Positions 11,928 to 31,643 are shown, counted from the first letter of the stretch. The stretch: DNA of 64,000 bases from an uncultured Rhodospirillaceae bacterium (GCA_913020445.1 CAJWAR010000013.1:13226-77225), one strand, 5' to 3'. Notes: generated from the sequence alone by a model not told the origin. A program made the numbers and translations.

Positions 11928-12938
11928 TCAACTGTTAGTTTTTGACTTCTTTGACGTTAATTTGTTTAGGCGGGCGGCAGCTCGGGCGTAATTTCGTTTC
12001 GCCGAAAGCTGGTACCATTTGATAGCCTCGGCTCGATTTTTTGGCACTCCTGTGCCGGTTTCATGCAATTGCCCCAGCATATAGGGCGCGATACGGTGGC
12101 CTTTTTTCGAACTTTCGGTGTAAAGCCGGATCGCCTCTTTAATATTTTTGGTCGTTCCCAATCCCAATTGATTCAATATACCAGCGCCGTAAAATGCGGA
12201 GGCGTATTTTTGATCCATCGCAAAACTATACCACCGCATCGCTTTTTCGTAGTCACGTTTAACCCCTTTGCCTTTATGATACAGCAGACCAAGTGTGTAT
12301 TGAGCACGGCCATATCGTTTCAATGCTGCGCGGCGATATAATTTAAATGCCTCATTTATATCTTTTTTGACGCCGCGGCCTTTTTCATAAAGCCGGCCAA
12401 GATCATAGAGCGATTTGGCATGACCCGATTCTTCGCCGGCCTTGCGCAACAGCCGGGCAGCTTCCTTATTGCTTTTTTTAACTCCAAGGCCGTAGCGATG
12501 CAGTAAGGCGAGACTGTTCATGGCAAGCGCATGCTTGGCAGATGCTTTGCGAAACCAAAAGGCTGCTTTGACGTAGTCTTGTCTGGTGCCTAGGCCGTCC
12601 CGGTACATTGTAGCAAGGTTGTTTTGCGCGCCAGCATGATCTTGTTTGGCTGCTTTTTCGTACCAGCTGCGGGCGAGACGAAAACTTACCGGCCGCCCCC
12701 GGCCACGATGAAAGAGCAGTGCCAAGGCATACTGAGATGCTGGATGGCCTTTTCTGGCATCGGCTGAGAATTCGCTAAAGGCTTTTTTGTAATCCTTATT
12801 TTTGACTGCTTCTAGGCCGGCCTTGTAGTCCGCATGAGCTGTATGAGCGACCAGCCACAAGGATACAAAAGCTGCAAAAAATCCCATAATTTTAAGAGAT
12901 TTAATCACAATTTGCCCCTTCTTGGGTGCTGAAATCAT
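11928..12938 (-). CDS. Secreted Sel1-like repeat (SLR) protein
   Basis: N-terminal signal-like FFAAFVSLWLVAHTAHA, followed by about 8 repeats of the form A..WY.KAA.QG...AQ..LG.(L/M)Y..G.GV..D...A. It is divergent from the giant adhesin gene. Confidence 0.85.
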   Translation of the reverse strand: MISAPKKGQIVIKSLKIMGFFAAFVSLWLVAHTAHADYKAGLEAVKNKDYKKAFSEFSADARKGHPASQYALALLFHRGRGRPVSFRLARSWYEKAAKQDHAGAQNNLATMYRDGLGTRQDYVKAAFWFRKASAKHALAMNSLALLHRYGLGVKKSNKEAARLLRKAGEESGHAKSLYDLGRLYEKGRGVKKDINEAFKLYRRAALKRYGRAQYTLGLLYHKGKGVKRDYEKAMRWYSFAMDQKYASAFYGAGILNQLGLGTTKNIKEAIRLYTESSKKGHRIAPYMLGQLHETGTGVPKNRAEAIKWYQLSAKRNYARAAARLNKLTSKKSKTNS

Positions 12939-16300: not shown

Positions 16301-19300
16301 ACGGCAACTGTTGATACCGAAGGTATTGCCGATGGCGAGTTAACGTCGGTAGAAATTAGTGGCATTCCAGTGGGTTCCGTTTTAACTGCTGATGGTACGT
16401 CGATGACGATTACCAACGGCAGTGTAACCTTGAACCCGGATCAGCTGGCTAATGTTCAGATTACCCCGCCCGAAGATGATGCCAATGATTTCACTGTACA
16501 GGTGAGAGCCACTGCAACGGATATCGATCCCGATTTGCTTATCGCCTCCGAAGATGCCGATGCGGCGCTGGCAGCTGCTATCACCGCTGAAGCAGACGCA
16601 ACAACTGCAGCCACTGCCGCCGCAGATGCCGCGACTGCTGCTGCTGATGCTGCCACTGCCGCCGCTGACGCCGCCGCCGAAGCCGCGACGATTGCCGCCG
16701 ACGCCGCGACGGCGCTCCAAGAAGCGATCGATAATGATGCGCCGCAGGAAGAAATTGATGCCTTGCAAATAGCCGCTGATGACGCCGAGGCAACTGCTGC
16801 TGAATTGCAAACCACTGCTGAAACTGCGGCACAGGCGAGTACCGATGCGGCGGATGCCGAAACTGCTGCTAATCAGGCATTGACTGATGCTCAAACAACT
16901 CTCAGTGAGGCTACCACCGCCGCCGCCGATGCTGCCGACGCGGTTACCAACGGCTATATTACCAACACCAGTGATCCGGTCGATCTCGACGTGACAGTAA
17001 GTGCGGTTGCCGATGTGCCGGACGTCACGGTGACTGCCGCTACAGGCGATGAAGATGCGGCGATCCCGTTGGATATTTCGGCCACCGGCGATTTCCCGGA
17101 TGATACGCTCGAGAGTTTTACCATCAGCGATATTCCGGCAGGTTCCGTGCTGATGAGCGGCGATACAGAAATAACCTTGACTGGTCCGGATTCAGAGACT
17201 GGTTTTTACAGTGCTGTGCTGTCGCCTGATCAAGTAACGGGTCTGACTATTACGCCACCTGCCGATGATGCCAATGATTTTGCCCTGCAGGTGAGTGCGA
17301 CGACATCTGACACTGATCCCGATACCAAAGATCAGGTTTTTGCCACCAGTGCACCAATTGCGTTAGCCGTTAGTGTTGCGGCCACGGTTGATGCGCCGGA
17401 TGTAGGTGTGACAGCGGCTGTCGGTGATGAAGATACCGCCATTGATATTGATTTCACGGCCTCCGTCGAAGCAACGGATGGTGACTTGCTGTCGGTTGCA
17501 ATCAGCGACATTCCAGTTGGCTCCGTTGTGACCGTTGATGGTACAGAGATGACGATTACAAACGGCACGGTTACCTTGACTCCAGATCAATTGGCGAATG
17601 TGCAAGTTACACCACCGCTAGATGACGCGGATGAATTTACATTGCAAGTTAGTGCGACGGCGACAGATACCGATCCCGATACCAGGATTGTGGTAACCAA
17701 CACCAGTGATCCGATTAATCTTGACGTCACGGTGAATGCCACGGGCGATGTTTCCGTTGATGTAAGAGATAATATAATTGACGAGGATTCGGGGCCGATG
17801 GTGCTGGATCTGACGGCGACAATCTCCGATATGGATGGTTCCGAGACACTTGCAGAAGTTGTCATTACTTTTGATGAAGTGCCGGAAGGTTTGGTCGTTA
17901 CTGGTGGCACCTTGGTCGGTAACGTTTTGACCATCCCAGCTGCCAATGTTGATTCGGTAACAATCGAAACACCTGAAAATTGGTATGGTGTTCTGGTCGG
18001 CTCAGCAATTGCCTACTCAAATGAAGGTGAAAGCTTATCCGACGGATTTACGATCACCATCAATGCGGTTGATGATGCACCAGAGGTAACGATCAATACC
18101 GGCGCGTCTATTGGCGAAGGCGAATTGGCAACAGTAACAGCCCAGATGCTGGATACCACCGATGTCGACACTTCTGATGACAATTTGACCTATACGGTAA
18201 GCGACAGTGGCACCGGCACGGTGCTGGTCGATGGCGTTGTGGCCACGACTTTCACCCAAGCTCAGTTGAATGCCGGCCTGGTGTCATATCAACATGATGG
18301 CACGGAAAATGAAGCAACCTCCTTCACCTTCACCGTAACCGATGGCACGACGATAGTTGGCCCGGAAACCTTCAACTTTGTCGTCAGCGACGGCAATATC
18401 GCACCGGTCGCTACCGACGATGTCGACACGGTTGGTGACGATATTGGTGATATTACCTCCGGCGACGTGTTGACCAACGATTTTGATCTTGATGGTGATG
18501 TCTTGAGCGTCACCCAGGTCGAATTTGAAGGCACGGTCTATACCTTCCCGGAAGGCGAAACCTCGCTCACCATCGAAGGAGATATCGGTACGCTGACCAT
18601 GAATAGCGACGGTACCTATGATTTCGTCAATAACGAAGGCATTAATGAAGGCACTGGTGAATTTGAATGGGCTGAAGGAACGCCGGATTGGGTTGATCCC
18701 TCAGAACAGCAGGAGCTTGATCCTGTTCAAGTCAACCAGGAAAATCTGACCATGCCGGAAGGTGGCGAATCCGTCACTGTGACTTTCCAAGGTGAAGCGG
18801 CCGGTTACCACAATGTGGTTGGTTTCTACAAAATTGATGCCGACGGCAATCCCTATGAACCACAGATTGCCTGGGACGACGCGTCACAGCAGGGCAGCGG
18901 CGGCGACTTAATTCCAGGCGAGTCTCAATTTACCATTGATGATTTGGGACCCGGCGAAAGTTTTGGTTTCTTTATCATTAAAAATGGCGCTAACGAATAC
19001 CCGTGGATCGACGACGTTCCCGATAACCATTACTTCGAGTTTAGTGCCGACGGTGAGTTGATCGAATACAACGAGGCAGGAAATCCGGTTGGTCAATCCG
19101 AAGGCGATGGCGACGATGATGACAACGAAGGCCATAATATCGACGTCGACGATATCTTTCATGCCGTTGACAACAATCTGACTGACAGTCTTTTAAATAC
19201 CGATAACATCACTCATACCAATTCCGGTATTGATCCCGAAACTGGTGATTTGATGATCGGTTTCGAAGACCTCTATGGCGGTGGCGACGAAGATTATAAC

Positions 19301-22300
19301 GATCTGATGTTCTCCGTTGAATATGAAGGAACACCGATCCCTGCTGAGGATGTCTTTACCTACACGGTGAGCGATGGCGAATTCACCGATACGGCTAATC
19401 TGACGCTTACGGTTGAACATGACAATGACGCGCCGGTCGCAATTAACGATTCCGGTTCGACCGATGAAGATTCCTCGGTGATTGTGGATGTCTTGGCGAA
19501 TGACACGGATGCCGATGACAATGACGTGCTGACGGTGACGGATGTCAGCCTGCCGGCTGGCGTTGACGGCACCGTGGAAATCGTTGAAATCGACGGTGTC
19601 ACGCAAGTGAAATTTACGCCAGGTGACAGTTTCGATGCTCTAAATACAGGTGACACGGATCAGGTTGAAATCACTTACACTGTTTCTGATAGCGAAGGCT
19701 TAACCGATACAGCTGTTGCGACGGTTACAATCACCGGCACCAATGATGGCCCGGTAGCAGAAGCAGTTATCGGCAGTGCCGGCGAAGATGATTTGTCTAT
19801 GACGGTCGATATTGCCGATCAGATCAGCGATCTCGATCACACTGACGCTGAATTGGCCATTTCAATCAATTTTGATGACGATGATGATAGCGATGTTGAT
19901 GTCGATTGGGATGTTAGCATCGTCGGTACAGAAGTTACTTTTACCCCGCCGGAAGACGCGTTTCAGTATTTAAATGAGGGCGAAACGGCGACCGATACCT
20001 TCACCTATACGGTTACTGATCCGGAAGGTGCTTCGGCCACCAATACCGTGACTTTGACAATTACCGGCTCTAATGACGTGCCGACAATTACCGGTGATAC
20101 CACTGGCGCAGCGACGGAAGATAGCGTTCTGACCGTGGATGGCCAGCTAAACATCGTTGATCCGGATACCGGTCAATCTCAGTTTGATGCGGTGTCTGAT
20201 GAAGTCGGGTCTTACGGTTCATTCTCAATGGATGCCAATGGCAACTGGACCTACGATTTAGATAATAACGCAGATATAGTTCAATCTTTGCCGGCTGGCG
20301 AGATCGTGACCGAGACTTTCACCGTGACCTCTGTCGATGGCACGGCTTCGGAAACAGTCACAGTGACCATTACCGGCACCAATGATGTGCCGAACATTAC
20401 CGGCGATTCCACTGGCGCAGTGACGGAAGACAGCGTTCTGTCAGTAGTTGGCCAGCTGAATATCATTGATCAAGATACTGGTGAATCTCAGTTTGATGCG
20501 GTTTCCGGTGAGGTCGGTTCATACGGATCATTCTCGATGGATGCGGCTGGCAATTGGACCTACGATTTAGACAATAATGCCGATGCGGTACAAGCTTTGC
20601 CGGCTGGCGAAGTCGTGACCGAGACATTCACCGTAACCTCTGTCGATGGCACTGCTTCGGAAACCGTTACCGTGACAATTACCGGCACCAATGACGTGCC
20701 GGTAATTACCGGTGATTCCACCGGCGCAGTGACGGAAGATAGCGTTCTGACCGTCGATGGCCAGCTGAATATTGTTGATCCGGATACCGGTGAATCTCTG
20801 TTTGATGCGGTTTCCGGTGATGCCGGTACATACGGTTCTTTCTCGATGGATGCGGCTGGCAATTGGACCTACGATTTAGACAATGATGCTGAAGCTGTCC
20901 AGGCTTTGGGTGTTGGCGACAGTGTAACCGAGACTTTTTGGGTGACCTCGGTTGATGGTACGGCGACGGAAGCTGTTTCAATTACCATCAATGGCACCAA
21001 TGACGCGCCAGAAGTATCGGGTGTTTTGGTGTACACCATGAATGAAGATGGTTCCTTGACCATCACCGAAGATCAATTGCTGTCCAATGCCAGCGATGTT
21101 GAAGGTGATAGTCTGAGCATCTCTAATCTGCAGACCGCTGCAGAAAATGGCACTATCACGGATAATGGCGATGGCACGTGGACTTATAATCCACCTGCGG
21201 ATTTCAATGGTCCGATCGCGTTTTCTTATGATATCAGTGATGGCACGGATACTGTGACTGCCGGAGCAATTGTTGATATTCATGCCGTTAATGATGCGCC
21301 GGATGCGGTTGACGATGTATTGGCGAGTGTTGCCGAAGATACATCCTTTACCTTCACGGCAGATGATTTACTCGGCAATGACACCGATGTTGATGGTGAT
21401 ACGCTCAGTATTATGGATATTGGTCAGCCTGATCATGGTTCCATTACCGACGATGGCAACGGCAATTACACTTATACACCGGAAGACAACTATAATGGCC
21501 CGGTCAGCTTTACCTATACTGCAACCGATGGCACCAGTGGTCATTCCTTTGTCAGCAATGACAGCCTCGCGACGGCCCAGGATATTGGCCGCGATAGTTT
21601 CGGCGTTGGTGAAGATGCGCTGGTTGATGATGACAGTCTGCCGCGTGTTCGGATTGAAGGGGCCGTTGACGAACCTGGCGATGTCGATTATTTCTCGTTT
21701 ACGCTACAGGACGGAGAGCAACTGCACCTCAATATAGATTCGGAAAATCAAAGTGACTCCGTTGACGCCTTAATCTTAATCTATGATGAAGCAGGCAATA
21801 TCGTCGCCTCCGTGGACGACTCTTTCGGCTCGATGGATCCATTTGGTACCTTTACGCCAACCGAAGGCGGCACCTATACGGTCGCCGTTCAGGCTTTCCC
21901 TTGGCAAAATGTTGAAGGTGCCACGGAAGAACAACTTGCTCTGGCCAGCGGCGATTATGTGCTAAATGCCAGTGTTGTGCCAACCGAGGACTCCACCGGT
22001 TTCGGTGACGCGCCGGCGACGATTTCCGATGTTGATACGGCAACTGATTCTGCATCTGTTACGTTTGATGTGGACTCAGTTAATGATGGCCCGGAAGCCG
22101 AAGCAGTTGTCGGCAGCGCTGGCGAAGATGATTTGTCTGTAACAGTGAATGTCGCTGATGAAGTAAGCGATGTTGACCATACTGATTCAGAACTTGTTAT
22201 CGCGGCAAATATGGGATCGACCGGCTGGACTGCAAACGTTGATGGCATGGATATCACGTTCACACCTCCAGAAGGCGCGTATAATCATTTAGCAGACGGC

Positions 22301-25300
22301 GAAACGGCCGTAGAAACATTTACCTATACGGTTACTGATCCCGACGGTCTGGAATCAACCAATACAGTTGTTATGACCATCAATGGCGCCAATGACGGCT
22401 TCACAGTTGACGGTAGCGTTGCGGCTGGCACCTTGGAAGATGATGGCGTTGCCTTCAATATTTTTGATGCCATTACGATCACCGATCCTGATGCTACTGA
22501 CACCCACTCAATTAACGGCTACACGCAACCGCAAAATGGTACGGTAACAGTCTCTGCTTTGGGTGCAGTTGTGTTCTCCCCAAATATCGATCCAACAACC
22601 GGCGAATCCGTTTTTAATACGATGGGTGTTGGTGATACGGCGACCGAAACCTTCACCTACACAGTGGATGACGGCAGTGGTGGAACGTCGATTGAAACCG
22701 CAACGATCACCATCACCGGCACCAACGATGCGCCGGTCGTAACAACAGCAATTCAAGACGGCACCACCAGTGAAGATCAAGCCTACAGTTATGATGCTTC
22801 GGCTAATTTCGCCGATGTTGATAATGGCGACTCGTTGATTTATTCCGCGACATTGGATGATGGTTCTGCGCTGCCGGATTGGATTTCAATTGATCCTGTA
22901 ACCGGTGAAATTTCCGGCGTGCCGGATAATGATGATGTTGGTTCGTTGAATATCAAAGTAGTTGCTACCGATGAGTCCGGTTGGGCGGCCGATGACACCT
23001 ATCAACTTGATGTCATCAACACCAATGACGGCCCAGTTGCGGTTAATGATATCGGCACCGTGGATGAAGATGCTTCAGTGACGCTGGATGTTCTGGCGAA
23101 TGACACCGATGTAGATGGTATCGCGCTGTCGGTAACAGATGTGAGCCTGCCGGAAGGCGTCGATGGCACGGTTGAAATCGTTGAAGTTGATGGTGTGACC
23201 CAGGTTAAATTTACCCCGGGTGAGACCTATAACAGCTTGGCGGTTAATGAATCCGAAGACGTTATCATTTCTTATACGATTTCCGACGGCGCTGGCGGTA
23301 GCGATTCAGCGATCGCTACTGTGACAGTTACCGGTTCCAATGATGGCTTTACTGTTATTGGCGATGCTGCCGACGATATGTTGGAAGACGAGCTGTCGAC
23401 GACGTTTAACGTTTTCGATGACATCACCGTAAGCGATGGTGATGCGTCCGATACTCACAGCATCACCACCTATTCTCAACCTGACAATGGTACGGTTGAA
23501 GTGCTGACTGACGGTACCGTGACGTATACGCCACCGGCCGGCCACTTTAATAGCCTGGCCGAAGGTGAAACGGCAATTGAGTCCTTCACCTATACGATCG
23601 TTGACGGTAATGGCGCTGAGTCCCTGGAGACCGCGACAGTTACCATCACCGGTACCAATGACGGCCCGGTTGCAATCGGTGGATCGGAATCCGACCTTTT
23701 AGAAGATATAGCATTCGCCGGTCAATTGGCGGCGACAGATGTTGATGGTGATACTTTGACCTTCTCCTTGGCCGATAATGGTGGCCCCGCCCATGGCTCC
23801 ATCACGATTGGTGAAGACGGCAGCTACTCTTACCAACCTGATCTGAATTACAGTGGCACCGACAGCTTTACTTTCGAGGTCAGCGATGGCCACGGTGGTA
23901 CAGATACCGCAACAGTTACGCTTTCTGTCACCGGTGTTGCCGATGATCCGATCGTTGTTGTCAGCAATGAAACTGGCAATGAGGATCAGTGGACCCAGCT
24001 AAATCTGGATGCGGATCTAACTGACACGGATGGTTCTGAAACTCTCAGCGTATTGATCTCAAACGTACCGGACGGTGCTTTGTTGAACCCGGGTACTAAT
24101 TTGGGTGGCGGCGAATGGACAGTTTCTCCGGAACAGCTGCATCTGGTTTGCATCCTGCCGCCGGAAAACTTTAACGGCGACATCAATCTAACCTTGGCGG
24201 CGACATCGACTGAAGCCGATGGCGACATTGCGACAGTTGAGCAAAACTTCACGGTAACAGTTGATCCGGTCAATGACGCGGCGACAATTACCGGTGATGA
24301 TACAGGTTCCGTCACCGAAGACAGTATTTTAGCAGTATCTGGTGATTTGGATGTAACCGATCCGGATACCGGCGAAAGCATCTTTGATGCCGCAAATGCA
24401 GTTGGCGATTACGGCTCCTTCACGATGGATGTGAACGGTAACTGGACCTATAACCTCGATAACGACAATGCCGATGTTCAGGCCTTGGGTGTTGGTGAAA
24501 GTATGTCTGAGACCTTTACGGTGTCGTCGGTTGACGGAACCGCGAGTGAAACGGTTACCGTTACGATCAATGGTACCAATGACGGCCCGGTTGCGGTTGA
24601 TGACAGCAATACTGTTGATGATACCGCCGATTCAGTTATTGGCTCGGTGACGGCCAATGACAGCGATGTCGATGGTGATACGTTGAATGTGACCGAAGTA
24701 GAGTTCAATGGCACGACCCATAGTTTCCCGGAAGGGGAAGACAGTCTTACCATCGTCGGTGATCACGGTACCTTGGTGATGAATTCCGATGGCAGCTATG
24801 AATATACCCGAAGCGGCGAAGGTGGTGGTACGGCCAGCGAAATTGTCGAAGCCGGCGGCTATGGTTCCAGTGAAGCTGACTGGACGAGTGCCGGGGTTTC
24901 CATTTCGGCCTTTGATTTCGGCACGTCCTATACCGATGGTAATGGCGACTTCGATGCCTCCTTGGCTGACGACAGTGTTGTCGTTACCAGTCAAGGTCTG
25001 GGCGTAGAAGGCACGCAAGGGGGTGCGCAAGCATCCACGCAAATCGAGTATGATCCGAATTCTGGTGATTCCGAAGCGCTAGCTCTGACCTTTGATACCA
25101 GTGTCTCAAGTGCGGATGTGACTGTTGCCCGCCTCTATCACGGCGAAGGCTCCGACGGTGAGCAGGGCATGTGGCAAGCCTATGATGCCGACGGTAATTT
25201 GGTCGGCAGCGGCGAAATTGATGATGAAACGGTTGCTTATGATGGCAGCAGCAATGTCGGCACCCTGAACATTGATCTTGGTGGCACGGCTTTCCAGACC

Positions 25301-26944
25301 GTGGTCTTCACGGCGACCCAAATGTCAGGCAGCCAAAGTGACTTTAAAGTCCAAGGCGTTGAATATGAAACAGTTGGAACCTTGGTCGGTGACGGCGGTG
25401 AAGACGTCTTCACTTATACGGTCGCCGATGATCAAGGAGCTACAGATACCGCTGCTTTGACCATCACCGTTGATGGTGATGATGATCCCGCTGATGCGCC
25501 TGTACTGACGATCTCGGCAACCTTGGTTGAAGCAATTCCAACCGAAACGCTATTTACCAGTACGTTTGATGACGGCGCTGCTGATGGCTTCTCCTATGTT
25601 GATGACGCTTTCCGCGACACCGATGAAGGCGATTACGCCAAAGGCCAGATTAAAGATGGTGGACATCACGATGACGATGGGCGCTTACGGGTCGAGCTTG
25701 GGGGTAAAGATGATGACGATATTACCGACATGTCTGGCGGGTTTGAGCAAAGCTTTACCGTTGATGAAGATGGTGCGGGCTCCATTACGTTCACTTATAA
25801 AATCGATATGGACAGCCATTATGAAGATGACGAATACGCCGAAGTATTGGTCAGCATTGATGGCGAACTTGTCAATATTGCCGGTAATGACTATGTCACG
25901 CGTGTCTCCGGTGGTGATGATATCGGTTGGACGACAGTAACCATCGACCTTGGAGATTTGGATGCCGGTGATCATACTGTTATGATTGGTGGCTATAACA
26001 ATAAGAAGACCTATCACAACGAGAAAACCAAAATCGATTTTGATGATGTTTCTTTGAATGTCGGATCAAGCGATCCGGGCAGCACCTTTGAAGTCGATAT
26101 TACCGCAGCATTGACGGATGATACAGAAACCTTGTCAGCGGTCACGATTGACGAGCTGCCGGAAGGTGTCGCGTTTGTCGGCATTGACCAAAATGACGAT
26201 GGCACATGGACGCTGACAGCGGATGATCTTGTTGATTTGACCATGACGGTGCCGCCGGGTACCGATGATTTTGATATTAGCGCGTCGGTTACCTCGACGG
26301 AAGACAATGGAAATTTTGCCACGACAACGACCTCTATCACTGTTGATGTCCCGGTAATTGATGCCGAGGACCATGATCGTATGGGCAGCTCATCTGACGA
26401 TACCATTGTCGGCATGGATCGCGACGACGATGCCGATGCTGATGCCGGAGGTGATGATATCCTCTACGGCGGCGCCGGTGATGATACCATCGACGGCCAA
26501 GGCGGCGATGATGTGATATTCGGCGGCTCCGGTGTTGACTATATTGATGGCGGTGATGGCGGCGACGTTATCTACGGCGGCAGCGACGACGATGTTATTA
26601 TCGGTGGTGAAGGCAACGACCAGCTTTATGGTGGCTCCGGCGATGATGAATTTATCTTCAGCCTCGGCGATGGCGAAGACACTGTCTTCGATTTTGATAA
26701 TGGCGACGTTCTGACCTTCGAAGGCATCGATCTCAATGACGGCGATGCTGTCGAGTTCGATACCGATGGCGATGATGTTGTTGTCACGGTTATCGGCAGC
26801 AACAATGAGCAGTCTAAAGTGACGTTGAAGGATGCTGCCAAAGACATGGATGATGATGAACGCCAAAATGTCGGAGATGGCTACTCTGTTACCGATACCG
26901 GTGACGGCTCCATCAATATCATTGTCGATACTCCCGGCGGCTAA
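13322..26944 (+). CDS. Giant (4540 aa) RTX-type, T1SS-secreted repetitive adhesin (LapA/BapA class)
   Basis: Single uninterrupted 13,623-nt ORF with GAGGGGG upstream of the ATG. Layout, N- to C-terminal: an N-terminal region with a FecR-like beta-rich segment (GQVESVSGTVTAIRADGT...TIGIRGTQVGI); a polyacidic linker with TAAG; poly-Ala/Glu; five 'GDEDTAI...ITPP.DD..DF.L.V.AT' domains; many VNDAP/TNDGP cadherin/VCBS-like units; a DUF4114-like segment (GFEDLYGGGDEDYNDLMFSVEY); a PPC-like segment (DVDYFSFTL...GTYTVAVQAF); a dystroglycan-type cadherin-like segment; and C-terminal GGxGxD nonapeptides with a T1SS-type tail. Confidence 0.93.
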   Translation: MADETLTGAGGRDNLNIGADGEDNAPESFLVEANSSDAVTLPDGFNFGDAKFEPSGPDLVLTSPDGKQVVIQDYYEQDPPPDLHTPVGGELAGSTAVRLAQTNAPTQGQFAQAAPSADAQPIGQVESVSGTVTAIRADGTRVELQVGDPVFQGDVMESGANGAVGVVLADETTFSMAENGRMVLDEMVYDPGTQEGNISMSVLKGVFTFVSGQVAKVDPDAMVLKTPVATIGIRGTQVGIDLSGEDPNGMKVVLMEESDGFVGEVVIANNAGIQILNLPDQGASVASSNTAPSEPRVYNRAEISESFRSALESLPTTVGTGNNYGADDQEKEEEEQEEQEEQEEEEGGEEQAEGEESGEDELAEGEEGEGEGEEDLDDFETAAGEGEEEITDEEAAAAAAAAQAAAEAAAAEAAAAEAAAEAAAAAEAAAEAAAQAAADAAAQAAAEAAARAAAAAAAAEAARLKAIQDAIDAENAVADTATVSIEAAAGDEDGEIALAISAGISGSSTDEVQSINITNIPDGSTLTYQDASGADQTISISDGRATLSPAQLSGLSITPPLDESADFALSVSATSVDPDSGVTATSGSVGLGVTVDATVEPPVVATNISIGDEDTAIPVDISIANVEADGTVTSVTISGIPEGSVLMSGGEAHSLTGPDANGFYTAEIRPDQVDGLTITPPQDDAHDFSLSITATATDIDPDIIAEHAALEVAATDARDAADAARTAATEAQTAADDAATVSEDAATALQEAIDNDAPQEEIDDLQAAADAAAETATDLQTAADTADEQATALETAADEAESDAAALAPAAAAATVVAAAEAAQVAADEAAQAAETAASELTVAIQDATDASIAASDAALASAAADVALAEAIENEADEEEIAELQLAADAAAEAALEAAATAQAAADAVIDAQANSESTATAATNAQAVADLAAADAVIAVIEADEAEVDGLVTNTSKPMALAVTVDATVDAPVVTPTAASGDEDTAIDIDFTATVDTEGIADGELTSVEISGIPVGSVLTADGTSMTITNGSVTLNPDQLANVQITPPEDDANDFTVQVRATATDIDPDLLIASEDADAALAAAITAEADATTAATAAADAATAAADAATAAADAAAEAATIAADAATALQEAIDNDAPQEEIDALQIAADDAEATAAELQTTAETAAQASTDAADAETAANQALTDAQTTLSEATTAAADAADAVTNGYITNTSDPVDLDVTVSAVADVPDVTVTAATGDEDAAIPLDISATGDFPDDTLESFTISDIPAGSVLMSGDTEITLTGPDSETGFYSAVLSPDQVTGLTITPPADDANDFALQVSATTSDTDPDTKDQVFATSAPIALAVSVAATVDAPDVGVTAAVGDEDTAIDIDFTASVEATDGDLLSVAISDIPVGSVVTVDGTEMTITNGTVTLTPDQLANVQVTPPLDDADEFTLQVSATATDTDPDTRIVVTNTSDPINLDVTVNATGDVSVDVRDNIIDEDSGPMVLDLTATISDMDGSETLAEVVITFDEVPEGLVVTGGTLVGNVLTIPAANVDSVTIETPENWYGVLVGSAIAYSNEGESLSDGFTITINAVDDAPEVTINTGASIGEGELATVTAQMLDTTDVDTSDDNLTYTVSDSGTGTVLVDGVVATTFTQAQLNAGLVSYQHDGTENEATSFTFTVTDGTTIVGPETFNFVVSDGNIAPVATDDVDTVGDDIGDITSGDVLTNDFDLDGDVLSVTQVEFEGTVYTFPEGETSLTIEGDIGTLTMNSDGTYDFVNNEGINEGTGEFEWAEGTPDWVDPSEQQELDPVQVNQENLTMPEGGESVTVTFQGEAAGYHNVVGFYKIDADGNPYEPQIAWDDASQQGSGGDLIPGESQFTIDDLGPGESFGFFIIKNGANEYPWIDDVPDNHYFEFSADGELIEYNEAGNPVGQSEGDGDDDDNEGHNIDVDDIFHAVDNNLTDSLLNTDNITHTNSGIDPETGDLMIGFEDLYGGGDEDYNDLMFSVEYEGTPIPAEDVFTYTVSDGEFTDTANLTLTVEHDNDAPVAINDSGSTDEDSSVIVDVLANDTDADDNDVLTVTDVSLPAGVDGTVEIVEIDGVTQVKFTPGDSFDALNTGDTDQVEITYTVSDSEGLTDTAVATVTITGTNDGPVAEAVIGSAGEDDLSMTVDIADQISDLDHTDAELAISINFDDDDDSDVDVDWDVSIVGTEVTFTPPEDAFQYLNEGETATDTFTYTVTDPEGASATNTVTLTITGSNDVPTITGDTTGAATEDSVLTVDGQLNIVDPDTGQSQFDAVSDEVGSYGSFSMDANGNWTYDLDNNADIVQSLPAGEIVTETFTVTSVDGTASETVTVTITGTNDVPNITGDSTGAVTEDSVLSVVGQLNIIDQDTGESQFDAVSGEVGSYGSFSMDAAGNWTYDLDNNADAVQALPAGEVVTETFTVTSVDGTASETVTVTITGTNDVPVITGDSTGAVTEDSVLTVDGQLNIVDPDTGESLFDAVSGDAGTYGSFSMDAAGNWTYDLDNDAEAVQALGVGDSVTETFWVTSVDGTATEAVSITINGTNDAPEVSGVLVYTMNEDGSLTITEDQLLSNASDVEGDSLSISNLQTAAENGTITDNGDGTWTYNPPADFNGPIAFSYDISDGTDTVTAGAIVDIHAVNDAPDAVDDVLASVAEDTSFTFTADDLLGNDTDVDGDTLSIMDIGQPDHGSITDDGNGNYTYTPEDNYNGPVSFTYTATDGTSGHSFVSNDSLATAQDIGRDSFGVGEDALVDDDSLPRVRIEGAVDEPGDVDYFSFTLQDGEQLHLNIDSENQSDSVDALILIYDEAGNIVASVDDSFGSMDPFGTFTPTEGGTYTVAVQAFPWQNVEGATEEQLALASGDYVLNASVVPTEDSTGFGDAPATISDVDTATDSASVTFDVDSVNDGPEAEAVVGSAGEDDLSVTVNVADEVSDVDHTDSELVIAANMGSTGWTANVDGMDITFTPPEGAYNHLADGETAVETFTYTVTDPDGLESTNTVVMTINGANDGFTVDGSVAAGTLEDDGVAFNIFDAITITDPDATDTHSINGYTQPQNGTVTVSALGAVVFSPNIDPTTGESVFNTMGVGDTATETFTYTVDDGSGGTSIETATITITGTNDAPVVTTAIQDGTTSEDQAYSYDASANFADVDNGDSLIYSATLDDGSALPDWISIDPVTGEISGVPDNDDVGSLNIKVVATDESGWAADDTYQLDVINTNDGPVAVNDIGTVDEDASVTLDVLANDTDVDGIALSVTDVSLPEGVDGTVEIVEVDGVTQVKFTPGETYNSLAVNESEDVIISYTISDGAGGSDSAIATVTVTGSNDGFTVIGDAADDMLEDELSTTFNVFDDITVSDGDASDTHSITTYSQPDNGTVEVLTDGTVTYTPPAGHFNSLAEGETAIESFTYTIVDGNGAESLETATVTITGTNDGPVAIGGSESDLLEDIAFAGQLAATDVDGDTLTFSLADNGGPAHGSITIGEDGSYSYQPDLNYSGTDSFTFEVSDGHGGTDTATVTLSVTGVADDPIVVVSNETGNEDQWTQLNLDADLTDTDGSETLSVLISNVPDGALLNPGTNLGGGEWTVSPEQLHLVCILPPENFNGDINLTLAATSTEADGDIATVEQNFTVTVDPVNDAATITGDDTGSVTEDSILAVSGDLDVTDPDTGESIFDAANAVGDYGSFTMDVNGNWTYNLDNDNADVQALGVGESMSETFTVSSVDGTASETVTVTINGTNDGPVAVDDSNTVDDTADSVIGSVTANDSDVDGDTLNVTEVEFNGTTHSFPEGEDSLTIVGDHGTLVMNSDGSYEYTRSGEGGGTASEIVEAGGYGSSEADWTSAGVSISAFDFGTSYTDGNGDFDASLADDSVVVTSQGLGVEGTQGGAQASTQIEYDPNSGDSEALALTFDTSVSSADVTVARLYHGEGSDGEQGMWQAYDADGNLVGSGEIDDETVAYDGSSNVGTLNIDLGGTAFQTVVFTATQMSGSQSDFKVQGVEYETVGTLVGDGGEDVFTYTVADDQGATDTAALTITVDGDDDPADAPVLTISATLVEAIPTETLFTSTFDDGAADGFSYVDDAFRDTDEGDYAKGQIKDGGHHDDDGRLRVELGGKDDDDITDMSGGFEQSFTVDEDGAGSITFTYKIDMDSHYEDDEYAEVLVSIDGELVNIAGNDYVTRVSGGDDIGWTTVTIDLGDLDAGDHTVMIGGYNNKKTYHNEKTKIDFDDVSLNVGSSDPGSTFEVDITAALTDDTETLSAVTIDELPEGVAFVGIDQNDDGTWTLTADDLVDLTMTVPPGTDDFDISASVTSTEDNGNFATTTTSITVDVPVIDAEDHDRMGSSSDDTIVGMDRDDDADADAGGDDILYGGAGDDTIDGQGGDDVIFGGSGVDYIDGGDGGDVIYGGSDDDVIIGGEGNDQLYGGSGDDEFIFSLGDGEDTVFDFDNGDVLTFEGIDLNDGDAVEFDTDGDDVVVTVIGSNNEQSKVTLKDAAKDMDDDERQNVGDGYSVTDTGDGSINIIVDTPGG
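14300..14503 (+). repeat. Polyacidic low-complexity linker containing the TAAG motif (14462..14473)
   Basis: In aa 327-394, 41 of 68 residues are D/E by my count. The stretch includes (GAAGAACAG)x3. T381-A382-A383-G384 is encoded by ACC GCT GCC GGC. Confidence 0.9.
14504..14749 (+). repeat. Poly-Ala/Glu (AAAE-type) low-complexity tract of about 80 aa
   Basis: AAAAAAAAQAAAEAAAAEAAAAEAAAE...AAARAAAAAAAAEAARLKAIQDAIDAENA, encoded by GCN/GAA-rich DNA. Confidence 0.9.
15431..16175 (+). repeat. Ala/Asp/Glu/Thr-rich helical insertion 1 in the adhesin
   Basis: About 248 aa between '...ATATDIDPD' and 'VTNTSKPMALAVTV'. Contains ALQEAIDNDAPQEEIDDLQAAADAAAE and the variant LAEAIENEADEEEIAELQLAADAAAE. 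Confidence 0.8.
16535..16950 (+). repeat. Ala-rich helical insertion 2 in the adhesin
   Basis: About 138 aa between '...ATATDIDPD' and 'ITNTSDPVDLDVTV'. Repeats ALQEAIDNDAPQEEIDALQIAADDAE, and the DNA is near-identical to 15570..15620. Confidence 0.8.
20072..20998 (+). repeat. Three tandem 309-bp (103-aa) VCBS/cadherin-like units
   Basis: The NDVP anchors at 20072, 20381, 20690 and 20999 are exactly 309 bp apart. Units 1 and 2 differ at 13 of 103 residues by my count. A diverged fourth copy lies at about 24280-24590. Confidence 0.9.
26452..26655 (+). repeat. RTX Ca2+-binding nonapeptide repeats (GGxGxDxxx)
   Basis: LYGGAGDDTIDGQGGDDVIFGGSGVDYIDGGDGGDVIYGGSDDDVIIGGEGNDQLYGGSGDDEFIF. Confidence 0.92.
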
Positions 26945-26972: not shown

Positions 26973-27005
26973 AAAAAGGGCTGCCCATAGCGGGTGGCCC
27001 TTTTT
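26973..27005. terminator. Bidirectional hairpin terminator between convergent genes
   Basis: AAAAAGGGC-15 nt-GCCCTTTTT, with A-run and T-run flanks. The right arm overlaps the TAA of the minus-strand gene. Confidence 0.6.
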
Positions 27006-28296
27006 ACTTTTTGGCGCGTGAATCGATCATGTCACGGAAGGCGTTGGTCACCCGCTCCATATATGGCCTGAGGTAGTCGAAATTATCGGCATGATCAAAA
27101 GAATGACGCATGGCCGGATTCATTTCGAAGATCAGAATTTTGCCTTCCTCGGTCACATTAAAATCGATACCAAGGAAATCGAGGCCAACCAGATCGGGCA
27201 GTTTTTCCAGCCGTTGATAAATTTCATCGCCCAAGTAAGCACGCGGGTCAGCCATGAAGGATTTTTCTTCTTCGATCATCCAATCATGCTCGGCCATTAG
27301 CGTTTTGCGGTTGGAGCCATGCACGTTCCACGTCGCATCTATATGCAACACAACGGGATAGAGCTTTCCATCAATACTGAAAAACCGCATTTTGCGATGA
27401 TATTTCTGGTGGAAGAAATTCTCGATAAACTGAATCAGATAAAGCTCTGCGCCGGAAAGTTCCTCGGCGGCGGTGACAAATTCTTCCAAACTGTCACATT
27501 TGATAAAAGTGCGTCCGGTATGCGTACCGGTTTCGCGGATCAGCACGGGAAATTCGAACTTATGTTCTTCAAGCAATTTGGTGAGGTCGTATTTATTTGA
27601 ACTTTTTGCCGGCACCCGGATGGATTTACCCATCTCAATGCCATCGATATCGAGTAAACGTTGATAGTTGTTGTCCCGGGTCGATTCCATCACACGGGTT
27701 GGATCATTGATAACGGACAGCGTTGGATTATGTTCGAGAAATTGGGCGGCGGTCTGCAATGATAGGAGTTCAACATCCGGGTCCGCAATGGTGTTAATCA
27801 CAACATCGAATTTTGGGATACGGTTGGGGTGCAGCAGATTATTGTTCAGCACCAAATAACTGATGGTCGTGTAATCCGCCGCGTCCCAGAAATAGCGGCT
27901 CGAGAAATTACCGCCGCGCAGCTTCAGCTTATGCTGGCCTTTGCGGCTTTGGCCGAGCGTGTAGTAAGCGTTTTGCACGCCCCGCAGGCGGAGAATTCGG
28001 GCACGTGGTTCGGTAACGCAGGTCGAAACAGTTATCGGATTGCGCTTAACGCCGGCGCGGAGCGTGCGGCGCGCGTTCCTTTCATTGCCACGTGATTTTT
28101 GGATGGCGGACAAATTAAAATAAGATGGCAGATGCGTTGGATCCAGCTCAATGGCGCGTTCAAATATATTAGCAGCTCGATCTAAATCGCCGGAGCGAAT
28201 GAGCGTTGAGCCAAATTGACTGTAAAGAGTTGAGCTTTCAGGCGTGAGGGCGAGGGCGCGCTGGAACATCGCAACGGCTTCCGGAAACCGGTCCAA
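27004..28296 (-). CDS. TPR repeat + ATP-grasp domain protein (N-terminus unresolved)
   Basis: TPR repeats at the N-terminus. The C-terminal half is ATP-grasp-like (...VLIRETGTHTGR...LYLIQFI...GIDFNVTEEGKILIFEMNPAMRH). The TTG at 28296 falls in the middle of a TPR repeat. The frame stays open with TPR-like sequence up to the TGA at 28501..28503, with no ATG/GTG/TTG in between. Confidence 0.75.
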   Translation of the reverse strand: MDRFPEAVAMFQRALALTPESSTLYSQFGSTLIRSGDLDRAANIFERAIELDPTHLPSYFNLSAIQKSRGNERNARRTLRAGVKRNPITVSTCVTEPRARILRLRGVQNAYYTLGQSRKGQHKLKLRGGNFSSRYFWDAADYTTISYLVLNNNLLHPNRIPKFDVVINTIADPDVELLSLQTAAQFLEHNPTLSVINDPTRVMESTRDNNYQRLLDIDGIEMGKSIRVPAKSSNKYDLTKLLEEHKFEFPVLIRETGTHTGRTFIKCDSLEEFVTAAEELSGAELYLIQFIENFFHQKYHRKMRFFSIDGKLYPVVLHIDATWNVHGSNRKTLMAEHDWMIEEEKSFMADPRAYLGDEIYQRLEKLPDLVGLDFLGIDFNVTEEGKILIFEMNPAMRHSFDHADNFDYLRPYMERVTNAFRDMIDSRAKK

Positions 28297-28500: not shown

Positions 28501-30636
28501 TCACCCGTTCCTTAGAAAATGCGCCCACTTCTCGGCACCGCCGTGATTCTCCAGCAAATTAAGCAGGGCAGCGACAACCGCGCGGTCATATTGACTGCCG
28601 GATTCTTCAAGTAAAATATTTCCGGCCGCTTCGATGGAGATGCCGTCGGAGCCATCACTTGGATTACACAAGCCCAAAAAGGCATTGGCGACGGCGACAA
28701 TTTTAGCCGGCAGCAATATCTGACCGCTTTGCAAGCCTGCCGGGCCGGAACCGTCATCAGCTTCAAAGCTTTGACGGATAGCTTCAACAACCGGGCCTTC
28801 AAAATCGATTTTTTCAAGCAATTCGGCGGAGGATGAAACGATATCTTCGCCGTCAACAATGGAGCCGAGATTGAGCAGCGCGCCGGCAAACTCGGCTGTG
28901 TCGGTATCGATTTTATTGGCTTCCATATCTTCGGCGATGGCGCGGGCAACCTCACCAACATGATTGGAGCGGGCAGAGGTAGTCGGATCACGCCGGTCAA
29001 CGATAGCTGCCAAGGTGCTGACCAATTGCCGCAAACGGTTCTCGCTTTTGATCTGTTCTTGCGAGAACTCCGAGATGTCATCCATGATCATCAAAATGCC
29101 AGGCGGATGATCGCGGTCGCCTCTAAGTGGAATATGGTCGGAGCGAATAACCTGCAACGAACCATCTTCCTGCTCAAATCTTTGAATGTTACTAGCGCGA
29201 ATTTTCTGCACTGATTCCTCAACGCCTTGATCTTCAGCATCGGCAAAATCAGCCAGCATCGTTTTGTTGATCTCGGCGTAGTATTTGGCTTTGACCGGTC
29301 CCATGACGCCAGCCATGGTTTTGCCAAACATTTCCTCGGTTTGAATGCCGGCGGCTTTGGCAGCGGGTTCGTTGGAGAACGTATAGCTCGTGGTGCCGTC
29401 AACGGCGACGATGTGGGTCGATTGGCTGTTGGTGATAACGCGCATAAATTTAGAGATATTTTCGAAGCGTTCGGACGAAATCCGGAACTTTTCAGCCGCT
29501 GCGGCGGCCCTTAAAGAGGTGCCGTGACGCCAGATCGCAATCATCGCAATGGCAACGCCAACAATGATGAGGACAAAGACCACCAATATTGTCTGCAGGC
29601 GCGTCTCATTAGCGGATAACGCCTCGGCACGGGAAATTTTGCGCACCAATATCCAGGGGAGATCAGCGATCGGGCGCGACGTGACCAACACTTCTTCGCC
29701 CGAGTAATCCCGCTTGATGGCAAAGCCGCCAGGTTTATCGAGGGCAAAAGCGGCGGCCAAATCCGGCGTATCAAACGCCATTGAGCGTTCAAGTGGTTTT
29801 GCACCATCTTTGAGAGGAGTCAAATATTCCACAGCGTTGCCAGATTTGCGGACGAGATAGGTTTCGGTGGTTTTATTGGTATCACCCGGTTGTTTCATAA
29901 GATCGAACAGTTCTTCATCAATAACGCGAACGCCAAGCGCAATGCCCAATCCTTTGGCGCCGGCATCCTGTTGCACACCGTAAACCGGCAACGAAAAACC
30001 CATGGTAGGTTCGTTTGTCGCCCCTTTATACATATCAATAATTGCCGGTTCACCATCAAAGCTCTTGCCAATCGCGGAGCGTTGCTTGCCCGAAAGAGGG
30101 GGCATGGCGGGTGTCAGTACAATAGGTTTGCCATCCGAATCCAGCAGCGCAATCCCGGCCGTGCCGGCGCGCTCAACATTTGAATTCGTCTCAGCTTGAG
30201 GTGCGAGGGGAACAAATCCGTATCTATCTGCAACTGCCACTAATAAATTTCGCAGATATCCCTGTTGGGCTGTCGCGTCGGTGACGCCTGATTTGTCGTT
30301 ATTTGCTTCGGCAAGTTCAGACATATAAAGCTGCAAGGACTGATTCTCAGTCAATTCGGCAATCGATTCTAGATTGGATTCAGTCCAGTCGTTGACGTTG
30401 CTAACCTGATTATCGGCAACGATGCCGAGCTTGATCTGCCACTCATTGAGCGCCCGTTGACGTTCGCTTTCGACGAACCGGAAGGAGAAAAATACACCAG
30501 CGCCGATGACCGCGATCATGACAACAATAATTATGCCGACAATGAGATTAACGCGGCCCTTGCGGGTTTCTTCTTCGGCCTCTTTATCTTTATCAACCGC
30601 CTCTGTTTCGTCGTTCTTTTGTGGCTCTTCGGCCAT
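28501..30636 (-). CDS. Membrane sensor: TM, periplasmic Cache-like domain, TM, PAS-like domain, degenerate HD-GYP domain
   Basis: GGGAGG RBS. TM1 is LIVGIIIVVMIAVIGAGVFFSF, followed by a ~290-aa periplasmic segment (...EEVLVTSRPIADLPWILVRKISRAEAL), then TM2 ILVVFVLIIVGVAIAMIAIW. The C-terminus aligns by eye to HD-GYP, but 'HD' is NL (28867..28872) and 'HHE..DG.GYP' is SFEADDGSGPAG (28735..28770). Confidence 0.8.
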   Translation of the reverse strand: MAEEPQKNDETEAVDKDKEAEEETRKGRVNLIVGIIIVVMIAVIGAGVFFSFRFVESERQRALNEWQIKLGIVADNQVSNVNDWTESNLESIAELTENQSLQLYMSELAEANNDKSGVTDATAQQGYLRNLLVAVADRYGFVPLAPQAETNSNVERAGTAGIALLDSDGKPIVLTPAMPPLSGKQRSAIGKSFDGEPAIIDMYKGATNEPTMGFSLPVYGVQQDAGAKGLGIALGVRVIDEELFDLMKQPGDTNKTTETYLVRKSGNAVEYLTPLKDGAKPLERSMAFDTPDLAAAFALDKPGGFAIKRDYSGEEVLVTSRPIADLPWILVRKISRAEALSANETRLQTILVVFVLIIVGVAIAMIAIWRHGTSLRAAAAAEKFRISSERFENISKFMRVITNSQSTHIVAVDGTTSYTFSNEPAAKAAGIQTEEMFGKTMAGVMGPVKAKYYAEINKTMLADFADAEDQGVEESVQKIRASNIQRFEQEDGSLQVIRSDHIPLRGDRDHPPGILMIMDDISEFSQEQIKSENRLRQLVSTLAAIVDRRDPTTSARSNHVGEVARAIAEDMEANKIDTDTAEFAGALLNLGSIVDGEDIVSSSAELLEKIDFEGPVVEAIRQSFEADDGSGPAGLQSGQILLPAKIVAVANAFLGLCNPSDGSDGISIEAAGNILLEESGSQYDRAVVAALLNLLENHGGAEKWAHFLRNG

Positions 30637-30836: not shown

Positions 30837-31643
30837 TTGGTTGTGATTGATTTGAAGCAAATTAAATATATTGCTGGCTTAGGTATTTTAGCCGCTGCTG
30901 CACTCGTTATTGGTGCCAGTGAAAACTCGGCTGCGCCACTAACGCCGGTGACAACAGATATTCAGCGATCGGCCAACCAAGCAGGCTATGTTGAGGTGCG
31001 TAAACGTAAGCGCCGTTCCAAAAAGCGCCGCCGCGGTAGATCGGTCGCGACCGCGAGTGCGGCGCGCGCTAAATCGGCCAAAGGTAAGTTATCGACAAAC
31101 GCATTGTTATTTGGCACCGCGGAAACTCAATCGACAAATTTCAAGCCGTTCAAGAAATGGCGCGGTGCGATGGCGAAAACCGCCAAGGAGCAAACCGATC
31201 TCGGTGCTTTTAAGAAAAAATTTGGTAAATGGGTAAAGTTTCTCGATACCTTGAAAGGCAAAGATCAGCTCACCCAGATCAAAGCCGTTAACAAGTTCAT
31301 GAACCAGGCCAAATATATCCTTGATATAAAAAACTGGGGCATCAAGGATTACTGGGAAAGCCCAGGTGAGTTTTTCGCCAAATTCGGTGATTGTGAAGAT
31401 TACTCCATCGCCAAATATATGGGGCTCAAATATCTTGGCTTTAATCCGGAAAATATGCGTGTCGTTGCGGTCAAAGATCTCAATCTCAAAGTCGGCCACG
31501 CGATCTTAGCGGTCTATTACAATAAGCGTATTCTGGTGCTCGACAATCAAATCAAAATCGTCGCTGACAGCCGTAAAATCCGCCACTACCAGCCGGTCTA
31601 TTCGATCAATGAAAAATACTGGTGGCGGCACCGGGTCGGGTAG
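30837..31643 (+). CDS. Periplasmic bacterial transglutaminase-like cysteine proteinase (BTLCP, LapG family)
   Basis: Signal-like IAGLGILAAAALVIGASENSAA. Triad contexts: GDCEDYSIAKY (C186, 31392), VGHAILAVYY (H221, 31497), LVLDNQ (D236, 31542). The start is uncertain (TTG 30837 or GTG 30843). A polybasic tract RKRKRRSKKRRRGR lies at 30999..31040. Confidence 0.82.
   Translation: MVVIDLKQIKYIAGLGILAAAALVIGASENSAAPLTPVTTDIQRSANQAGYVEVRKRKRRSKKRRRGRSVATASAARAKSAKGKLSTNALLFGTAETQSTNFKPFKKWRGAMAKTAKEQTDLGAFKKKFGKWVKFLDTLKGKDQLTQIKAVNKFMNQAKYILDIKNWGIKDYWESPGEFFAKFGDCEDYSIAKYMGLKYLGFNPENMRVVAVKDLNLKVGHAILAVYYNKRILVLDNQIKIVADSRKIRHYQPVYSINEKYWWRHRVG

Follow-up and report, generated by a model that had tools for sequence, protein, structure and literature searches.

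Results

A DvhD-like regulator adjoins a LapG-like protease and a giant RTX adhesin

We analyzed a stretch of 64,000 nucleotides from an uncultured Rhodospirillaceae bacterium (GCA_913020445.1 CAJWAR010000013.1:13226-77225), hereafter called the window, in which positions are counted from the first nucleotide. The original prediction, made from the sequence alone, concerned positions 28536-29010 and proposed that they encode an HD-GYP-like domain with all catalytic signatures replaced, which acts as a receptor behind a periplasmic Cache sensor rather than as an enzyme. These positions lie on the (-) strand and correspond to residues 543-701 of a protein of 711 amino acids encoded by the open reading frame (ORF) 28501-30636 (-), the regulator gene of this study. 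The core of that proposal, a dead HD-GYP domain serving as a LapD-like receptor behind a Cache domain, is already published for the protein DvhD (PMC10990149; PMC13090378), with which we compare the regulator throughout. The features of the regulator gene and its two Lap-like neighbours are as follows.

13322-26944 (+): LapA-like RTX adhesin of 4540 amino acids, convergent with the regulator gene; Pfam matches to FecR and HemolysinCabind
14462-14473 (+): TAAG at adhesin residues 381-384, inside DFETAAG, the predicted LapG-type cleavage site
28501-30636 (-): DvhD-like regulator of 711 amino acids, in the order N-terminal cytoplasmic tail, first transmembrane segment (TM1), periplasmic dCache domain, second transmembrane segment (TM2), juxtamembrane helix, PAS domain, stalk and degenerate HD-GYP domain
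30481-30549 (-): TM1, residues 30-52, from a Kyte-Doolittle scan and the position of the motif; inside a long model helix, 26-96
29602-30474 (-): periplasmic dCache-like domain, residues ~55-345; sub-threshold Pfam match to dCache_1, with 9RC2 as the best dCache-fold match in Foldseek
29530-29589 (-): TM2, residues 350-369, from the hydrophobicity scan; model helix 341-375
29062-29451 (-): cytoplasmic PAS domain, residues 396-525; weak Pfam match, alignment of the family profile to the DvhD PAS domain in 9RC0 and a PAS fold in the model
28504-29061 (-): stalk helix and degenerate HD-GYP domain, residues 526-711, containing 28536-29010
28828-28833 (-): junction S602/S603 of a 19-residue in-frame deletion, from alignments
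28642-28695 (-): residues 648-665, AVANAFLGLCNPSDGSDG, at the position of the aDxxDAL...RxY motif, from alignment and DvhD mutagenesis (PMC13090378)
30837-31643 (+): LapG-like BTLCP cysteine protease, divergent from the regulator gene; Peptidase_C93, putative TTG start

DvhD (DVU1020; PDB 9RC0, 9RBZ and 9RC2) belongs to Desulfovibrio vulgaris Hildenborough, where its partners are DvhG and DvhA (PMC10990149; PMC13090378). Karbelkar et al. (2024) reported that DvhD takes the place of LapD in a Lap-like system, that its HD-GYP domain is predicted to be inactive, that it binds cyclic di-GMP (c-di-GMP) with a Kd of 322 nM, and that its restraint of the LapG-like protease DvhG depends on c-di-GMP (PMC10990149); overall, the reported affinities are ~0.1-0.3 μM (PMC10990149, PMC13090378). 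Font et al. (2026) found DvhD to be without phosphodiesterase activity with any metal tested (PMC13090378).

[quoted passage not shown] The Pfam match to dCache_1 (residues 73-331) scored 43.1 bits, slightly below the cut-off of 45, and that to PAS (residues 397-521) was weak (E=0.0065). We modelled the regulator with AlphaFold2 from an alignment of 92 sequences (mean pLDDT 83.7), and the top Foldseek matches of the model in the PDB were the three DvhD structures, 9RC0 (PAS/HD-GYP; TM-score 0.73), 9RBZ (HD-GYP; 0.75-0.77) and the DvhD periplasmic domain 9RC2 (0.77, compared with 0.50-0.66 for all other dCache structures); PA4781 (4R8Z) gave a TM-score of 0.66. The model shows a break in the first periplasmic helix at residues 97-98, a feature that DvhD also has. 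The family-invariant residues W66, Q67, W84, N98, Q102 and Y104 sit on the first periplasmic helices, which may correspond, by analogy, to the N-terminal helices that form the protease-docking face of DvhD in a published AlphaFold 3 model.

The juxtamembrane segment WRHGTSLRAAAAAEKFRISSERFEN (residues 367-392; 29461-29538 (-)) is nearly invariant throughout the family, and residues 372-386 within it have a pLDDT below 50 despite this near-invariance. It may have a key part in transmission or serve as a binding site. We treated small ORFs lying antisense within the regulator gene as spurious because the 711-residue frame is conserved in hundreds of homologues.

The product of 30837-31643 matched Pfam Peptidase_C93 (E=2e-15) and, with 98.5 bits, NCBIfam CystProtLapG, which is under the equivalog cut-off of 320. 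In the PDB it matched the LapG proteins of Pseudomonas fluorescens (4U65_E, 1.8e-22) and Legionella (4FGO, 3.9e-20), and alignment with these two structures indicates an intact predicted triad of C187 (GDCEDY), H221 (GHAIL) and D236 (LDN), the first of these within the D-C-E calcium/catalytic motif. Its N-terminal hydrophobic segment comprises residues 13-27 and is followed by a polybasic stretch, RKRKRRSKKRRRGR (residues 55-68; 30999-31040 (+)), which is odd for an exported protein by the positive-inside rule. This stretch is kept in the window's clade (L004-L014; L and P numbers are our labels for relatives), but L003, L015 and relatives further away lack it. The whole LapG-like protein has a net charge of +31 and a pI of 10.2.

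The adhesin has an N-terminal retention module, a FecR-like beta module that Pfam matched at residues 154-244; a polyacidic linker, the TAAG motif, long repeats and C-terminal RTX nonapeptide repeats make up the rest. An N-terminal alignment with adhesin homologues from six other loci revealed [DE]F[EDQS]TAAG conserved at the same place, right after the module, and the DFETAAG of the window fits the published LapG/DvhG cleavage consensus, [T/A/P]AAG after the retention module. The original prediction had compared the regulator with LapD, and the divergent LapG-like protease adjoining it and the downstream RTX adhesin with TAAG make this analogy much stronger than was known at the time. The linker around TAAG (residues 321-395; 14282-14506 (+)) contains runs of the type EEEEQEEQEE and has a net charge of -40 over 75 residues; a low-complexity stretch rich in alanine and glutamate follows at approximately residues 395-460. 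The dCache domain has a net charge of -13. That the basic protease, the acidic linker and the acidic dCache domain take part in charge-based docking or competition is speculation.

The C-terminal domain is HD-GYP-derived and has lost the metal site

The relation of the C-terminal domain to HD-GYP domains is real and well beyond chance. Profile alignment, which had been named beforehand as the way to check it, gave a match to the Pfam HD-GYP model HD_5 (PF13487) with E=1e-12 and 48.6 bits, compared with a gathering cut-off of 27.2. A phmmer search of the PDB with the C-terminal 209 residues returned as its top match the DvhD PAS/HD-GYP structure 9RC0 (E=3.3e-18), deposited under the title 'HD domain/sensory box protein'. 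A profile of 40 family sequences matched the same structure with 5.9e-75 over chain residues 4-316, covering PAS and HD-GYP, and matched the active enzymes V-cGAP3 (5Z7C, 7e-41), PmGH (4MCW, 8e-26) and PA4781 (4R8Z, 4e-23).

For a check of individual positions, we aligned the domain and 140 relatives to the aligned segments of PmGH 4MCW, V-cGAP3 5Z7C, PA4781 4R8Z and DvhD. The columns carry PmGH numbers that we take to be E185, H189, H221-D222, H250, H276-H277 and D305. None of the eight metal-ligand positions of the three active enzymes is kept in the window protein, and the loss of all catalytic signatures, as originally predicted, is borne out at the level of single residues:

PmGH E185: T552
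PmGH H189: R556
PmGH H221-D222 (HD): L588-N589
K of HDxGK: S592
PmGH H250: deleted
HHE (PmGH H276-H277-E): S623-F624-E625
GYP: G631-(Y deleted)-P632, reading DGSG-P
PmGH D305: N651
RxY: S660-D-G662

The first reading by eye had placed SFE correctly at HHE. It had put NL at HD, one residue out of register, since HD corresponds to L588-N589 once the conserved glycine of HDxGK is aligned, and the supposed change of GYP to GPA is actually a one-residue deletion of the tyrosine. The losses of the first histidine, the H250 loop, D305 and the RxY motif had been overlooked. Nearly all of the 120 closest relatives share the deletion of the GYP tyrosine, and 17 of 135 more distant cluster representatives keep this residue; no family member examined has kept HD or HH. 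With none of the eight metal ligands left, the domain is predicted to be unable to act as a metal-dependent phosphodiesterase. It is, on this comparison, an HD-GYP homologue but not an enzyme, and the label 'c-di-GMP phosphodiesterase', which IMG applies to close relatives, is almost certainly wrong for the whole family. Relatives more than 90% identical to the regulator are named 'HD-GYP domain-containing protein (c-di-GMP phosphodiesterase class II)' in IMG and 'cache domain-containing', 'PAS domain-containing' or 'hypothetical' at NCBI.

Most c-di-GMP contacts of DvhD are lost in the window protein

The canonical c-di-GMP site of DvhD consists of Y523, L577, K582, Y621, M646, R650, Y652 and E668 and its bridging site of K520, P567 and R569, and each of the changes R650A, Y652A/R653A and P567T disrupts the response to c-di-GMP (PMC13090378). 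We scored eight residues, namely the published contacts L577, K582, M646, R650, Y652 and P567 together with K563 and R653, the last taken from the Y652A/R653A mutant. At least seven of the eight are kept in 53 of 73 scorable species-level relatives, in which the usual pattern is M-N-x-G-K, P, L, R, M, R-x-Y/W-R. The window protein keeps a single one, L656 in place of M646. Its replacements are S592 for K563, G596 for P567, S660 for R650, G662 for Y652 and S663 for R653, and they include the positions of the DvhD mutants that have lost the response. The 19-residue in-frame deletion takes out the loop that holds the equivalents of DvhD L577 and K582 and of PmGH H250. At the other canonical positions, Y523 is replaced by T552, Y621 is deleted and E668 is matched by E678; in the bridging site, K520 is conservatively replaced by R549, P567 by G596 and R569 by D598.

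The same contact loss and deletion are present in independently assembled close relatives (L004/L007, L005 and L006/L008), so they are not an assembly artefact. Residues 588-603 and 655-668 contain no lysine, arginine or aromatic residue, and the result is therefore insensitive to small shifts of the alignment. The domain is also strongly acidic. Within the core aligned to DvhD 540-686, the window protein has a net charge of -19 with 5 lysine and arginine residues, compared with -3 and 16 in DvhD, -3 to -5 and 17-22 in the active enzymes, and -8.2 +/- 2.5 and 14.3 in 55 relatives with intact contacts. In the closest relatives the former contact positions vary and read NPSDGS, DPENGS, SPRGGG, NPQNGQ and others.

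A neighbour-joining tree unites the window's clade with a second group, made up of L016, L018, L019, L021, L028 and L032, on one branch, all members of which keep between one and five of the eight contacts, while the sister lineage keeps all eight. The loss is graded: the equivalents of K563, Y652 and R653 go first, then R650 becomes variable, and then the loop is deleted. The lid loop has been deleted separately in P0007, P0010 and P0011.

Purifying selection continues to act on the domain. Over residues 561-711, dN/dS (Nei-Gojobori) was 0.055 against P0001, which is 94% identical in the domain at the amino acid level, and 0.094 against P0002, similar to the values for the dCache and PAS domains. 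The blocks IDFEGPVV, ARIVAVA.AF and LENHGG..KWAHF are conserved across the window's clade. Because dN/dS is low and the conserved blocks are long, a decaying remnant is unlikely.

The arrangement recurs in Rhodospirillales

A homologue search with the regulator yielded 558 matches. An exhaustive search of representatives gave 369 clusters at 50% identity (E<=1e-30), the best 150 of which are nearly all full-length at ~700 amino acids, and a scan of species-level genomes with a profile of 17 closer sequences found 76 loci. These are mostly from metagenome-assembled genomes (MAGs) of Rhodospirillales and other Alphaproteobacteria, including Rhodospirillaceae, Thalassospiraceae, Magnetovibrio and Magnetospira, and a few are labelled Hyphomicrobiales, Verrucomicrobia or generic Proteobacteria. 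The closest locus, at 91% identity, comes from an uncultured Rhodospirillaceae MAG, and the records of a mesopelagic sample of Tara Oceans include a protein identical to the regulator.

A LapG-like ORF lies directly upstream and divergent in 57 of the 66 species-level loci with at least 1 kb of flank by automated count, and in 61 of 66 once four ORF-boundary artefacts are counted in. Of the 49 loci with 3 kb of flank or more, 36 have an RTX-adhesin-like ORF downstream. Hence, the arrangement of regulator, protease and adhesin recurs across Rhodospirillales genomes. As far as the available text of the DvhD papers goes, they place the system mainly in Desulfovibrionales (PMC10990149; PMC13090378).

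In L006 (7136-9252), as in L015, L049, L063 and L070, an apparent frameshift divides the DvhD-like gene between two ORFs; such splits in MAG contigs could be assembly errors or real pseudogenes. Two loci labelled Verrucomicrobia subdivision 6 (L077 and L079; 36-37% identity) form a deep branch in which the GYP tyrosine is kept, two of the eight contacts remain and a LapG-like gene is adjacent. A third with a Verrucomicrobia label (L029, 52% identity) appears to be a Rhodospirillales contig that was misbinned.

Other genes in the window

One further gene separates the regulator from the adhesin:

27004-28296 (-): gene encoding a protein with TPR and RimK-like ATP-grasp domains (Pfam and NCBIfam), between the regulator and adhesin genes

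It is present in 17 related loci, and within the branch with degraded contacts every member with enough flank has it. Exceptions are L031 and L055, in which all eight contacts and the gene are present, and L003 and L015, which are outside the tree and have degraded contacts and no such gene. Two distant homologues (40-44% identity) lie in unrelated neighbourhoods that are not Lap-like loci. The link between this gene and degraded receptors thus comes down essentially to one branch of the neighbour-joining tree with exceptions and is a lead, not a finding; whether the gene belongs to the adhesin-release system is uncertain.

A gene for a Sel1-repeat protein (11928-12938 (-); five repeats, E=1e-58) lies directly upstream of the adhesin gene, in divergent orientation. 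The surrounding genes of the window encode mostly fatty-acid beta-oxidation enzymes, CoA ligases, TRAP transporter components and IclR regulators.

Discussion

Sequence and structure comparison identifies a regulator with DvhD-type architecture and a dead catalytic site in a Lap-like context, where the triad of the protease is intact and the adhesin carries a consensus cleavage site. We consider it likely that the protein is a DvhD-type inner-membrane regulator of a Lap-like adhesin-release module and that it no longer senses c-di-GMP in the way DvhD does. By analogy with DvhD, the regulator would act as a dimer whose periplasmic dCache domain restrains the LapG-like protease, and the adhesin would either remain on the surface or be released by a cut at TAAG. 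From the absence of the contact residues and of one contact loop, and from the strong acidity of the domain, we infer that the cytoplasmic domain of the window protein and its closest relatives has lost c-di-GMP binding of the DvhD type. The HD-GYP-derived domain would be kept under purifying selection, probably as a dimeric switch or scaffold, and its state may be set by some other input, for which the well-conserved PAS domain, a cytoplasmic partner and a periplasmic ligand at the dCache domain are candidates.

More tentatively, we propose that a marine Rhodospirillaceae lineage has turned a DvhD-type receptor c-di-GMP-blind while its Lap-type switch of protease, adhesin and receptor stayed under selection, with input coming from the PAS domain, a ligand of the dCache domain or a partner protein, one candidate being the TPR/ATP-grasp protein.

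Several observations weigh against our main interpretation. For the window's clade, an entropy test for relaxed constraint at the eight contact columns did not reach significance (fraction 0.11), and we therefore argue the loss of nucleotide binding from the identity of the residues, from the deletion and from charge. A ligand site can be rebuilt from different residues, and the equivalent of K520, R549, is kept. The periplasmic domain resembles that of DvhD at the level of fold only, with 14% identity and no sequence match in the PDB profile search. The start codon of the LapG-like gene (TTG at 30837) and its signal peptide are uncertain. Genes of a type I secretion system (ABC transporter, membrane fusion protein or TolC-like protein) were not found in the 64-kb window among 38 of the 40 listed ORFs of at least 200 amino acids, which were scanned with Pfam; they are presumably encoded elsewhere. 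Nucleotide binding, protease control and adhesin cleavage are, all three, deduced from comparison.

It is possible, though on the whole rather unlikely, that the window protein is an ordinary DvhD orthologue whose remodelled pocket still binds c-di-GMP or another cyclic dinucleotide, such as 3'3'-cGAMP, and which controls the protease from the inside out. Its architecture, fold and gene neighbourhood are those of DvhD, most of the family keeps the DvhD contacts, and the domain is under purifying selection. R549 and E678 (equivalent to K520 and E668) are retained, and DvhD itself tolerates cGAMP (PMC13090378). However, one of eight contacts remains, the positions of R650A, Y652A/R653A and P567T are changed and the L577/K582 loop is deleted. 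A core with a net charge of -19 and 5 basic residues is also unfavourable to a dianionic ligand, and the closest relatives differ freely from one another where the contacts once were. The proposal that a dead HD-GYP domain serves as a ligand receptor holds for the class, for which DvhD is published, and is doubtful for this copy given its contacts and charge.

The original prediction had the signal run from the outside in, with the periplasmic Cache domain sensing a small molecule and the dead HD-GYP domain serving as a cytoplasmic output that binds a ligand or partner. This is the reverse of DvhD, in which the cytoplasmic HD-GYP domain takes the input and the periplasmic dCache domain gives the output that handles the protease (inside-out). 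It is true that dCache domains are usually extracytoplasmic ligand sensors, that an acidic HD-GYP domain could be a protein-binding surface, and that the TPR/ATP-grasp gene runs through the branch with degraded contacts. But the conserved partner next door is a periplasmic protease, which makes it likelier that the periplasmic domain is the side of the output, as it is in DvhD and LapD. Within that domain, conservation is strongest on the N-terminal helices, the modelled docking face of DvhD, and not on an obvious ligand pocket. There is no known cytoplasmic effector, and the distant TPR/ATP-grasp homologues are not in Lap-like loci. We regard this direction of signalling as improbable here; a small-molecule input through the dCache domain is possible.

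The progressive loss of contacts, the recurrent deletion of the lid loop in related lineages and the frameshift-split copies in some MAGs could suggest that the C-terminal domain is a functionless, decaying remnant of a receptor that is becoming a pseudogene. We rejected this very improbable explanation on the dN/dS of 0.055-0.094, in line with the other domains; in addition, the ORF of the window is intact, long blocks are conserved across the clade and the neighbouring genes are retained. That the protein is an active HD-GYP c-di-GMP phosphodiesterase, as the IMG names of close relatives and the HD_5/COG2206 match might suggest, is scarcely conceivable and was likewise rejected, with all eight metal-ligand positions substituted or deleted and DvhD, which retains two of them, inactive with any metal tested (PMC13090378).

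The DvhD class is known; new are its alphaproteobacterial breadth and the graded natural loss of the nucleotide site, up to a member that fails its own family's test of c-di-GMP contacts. The window reveals a large syntenic family of DvhD-like regulators in marine Rhodospirillales (369 clusters; 76 species-level genomes), and its own protein stands at the extreme end of a graded series, a natural experiment in which the contacts are lost and selection still acts on the domain. Should the protein really have lost binding, it would be the first switch of the Lap type to run without c-di-GMP, detached from the second messenger by which all Lap and Dvh systems examined to date are defined, and it would offer a tractable case for finding out what else can set an inside-out receptor. 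In the literature searched we found no example of an HD-GYP domain without nucleotide binding in a Lap-type system. The series within one family (eight, four to five and one of eight contacts) may also guide mutagenesis of DvhD.

Comparison with known systems

The regulator shares with DvhD the same order of domains (TM, dCache, TM, PAS, stalk, degenerate HD-GYP), and DvhD is the best sequence or fold match for each of its parts. The HD and HH metal motifs are gone in both, and both genes adjoin a LapG-like protease and a LapA-like adhesin with [T/A/P]AAG. The two differ in host, a marine Rhodospirillaceae bacterium compared with Desulfovibrionales, and in sequence, with ~23-28% identity in the cytoplasmic module and a periplasmic domain alike by fold alone. 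The window protein has lost the GYP tyrosine and the L577/K582 loop by deletion, and it differs from DvhD at seven of the eight canonical c-di-GMP contacts and at two of the three bridging residues; its HD-GYP-derived domain is very acidic. The locus of the window also differs in the inserted TPR/ATP-grasp gene and in having no type I secretion genes nearby, unlike the P. fluorescens lap and D. vulgaris dvh loci, in which they are adjacent.

LapD of P. fluorescens resembles the regulator as an inner-membrane receptor, predicted as such for the window protein, that restrains LapG and so controls the retention of a giant RTX adhesin, and a degenerate domain of c-di-GMP turnover is found in both. 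LapD is built from LapD_MoxY_N, HAMP and degenerate GGDEF and EAL domains, and the two proteins have no domain in common. A Pfam scan of the regulator gave no match to LapD_MoxY_N, HAMP, GGDEF or EAL at E<=1, which ruled out a LapD homologue; the regulator is an analogue.

The active HD-GYP phosphodiesterases PmGH, PA4781, V-cGAP3 and RpfG have a homologous domain and share with the regulator the helical core and the DG.G..L motif; the window protein differs in lacking all eight metal ligands, the GYP tyrosine and RxY, and in the deleted lid loop. The E. coli proteins BluF/YcgF and CsrD, which act in unrelated pathways, carry degenerate EAL and GGDEF domains that no longer bind c-di-GMP. They resemble the end state proposed here, in which a signalling domain that has lost catalysis as well as ligand binding persists in a protein-protein or conformational role. 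The typical DvhD-like members in Rhodospirillales, for example P0114, L030 and L053, are full-length, 50-56% identical and set in the same neighbourhood, and they too have lost the metal ligands, with M-N in place of HD. They differ from the window protein in keeping K563, P567, L577, R582, M646, R650, Y/W652 and R653 and are predicted c-di-GMP receptors, and intact-contact and degenerate members alike carry the near-invariant juxtamembrane segment.

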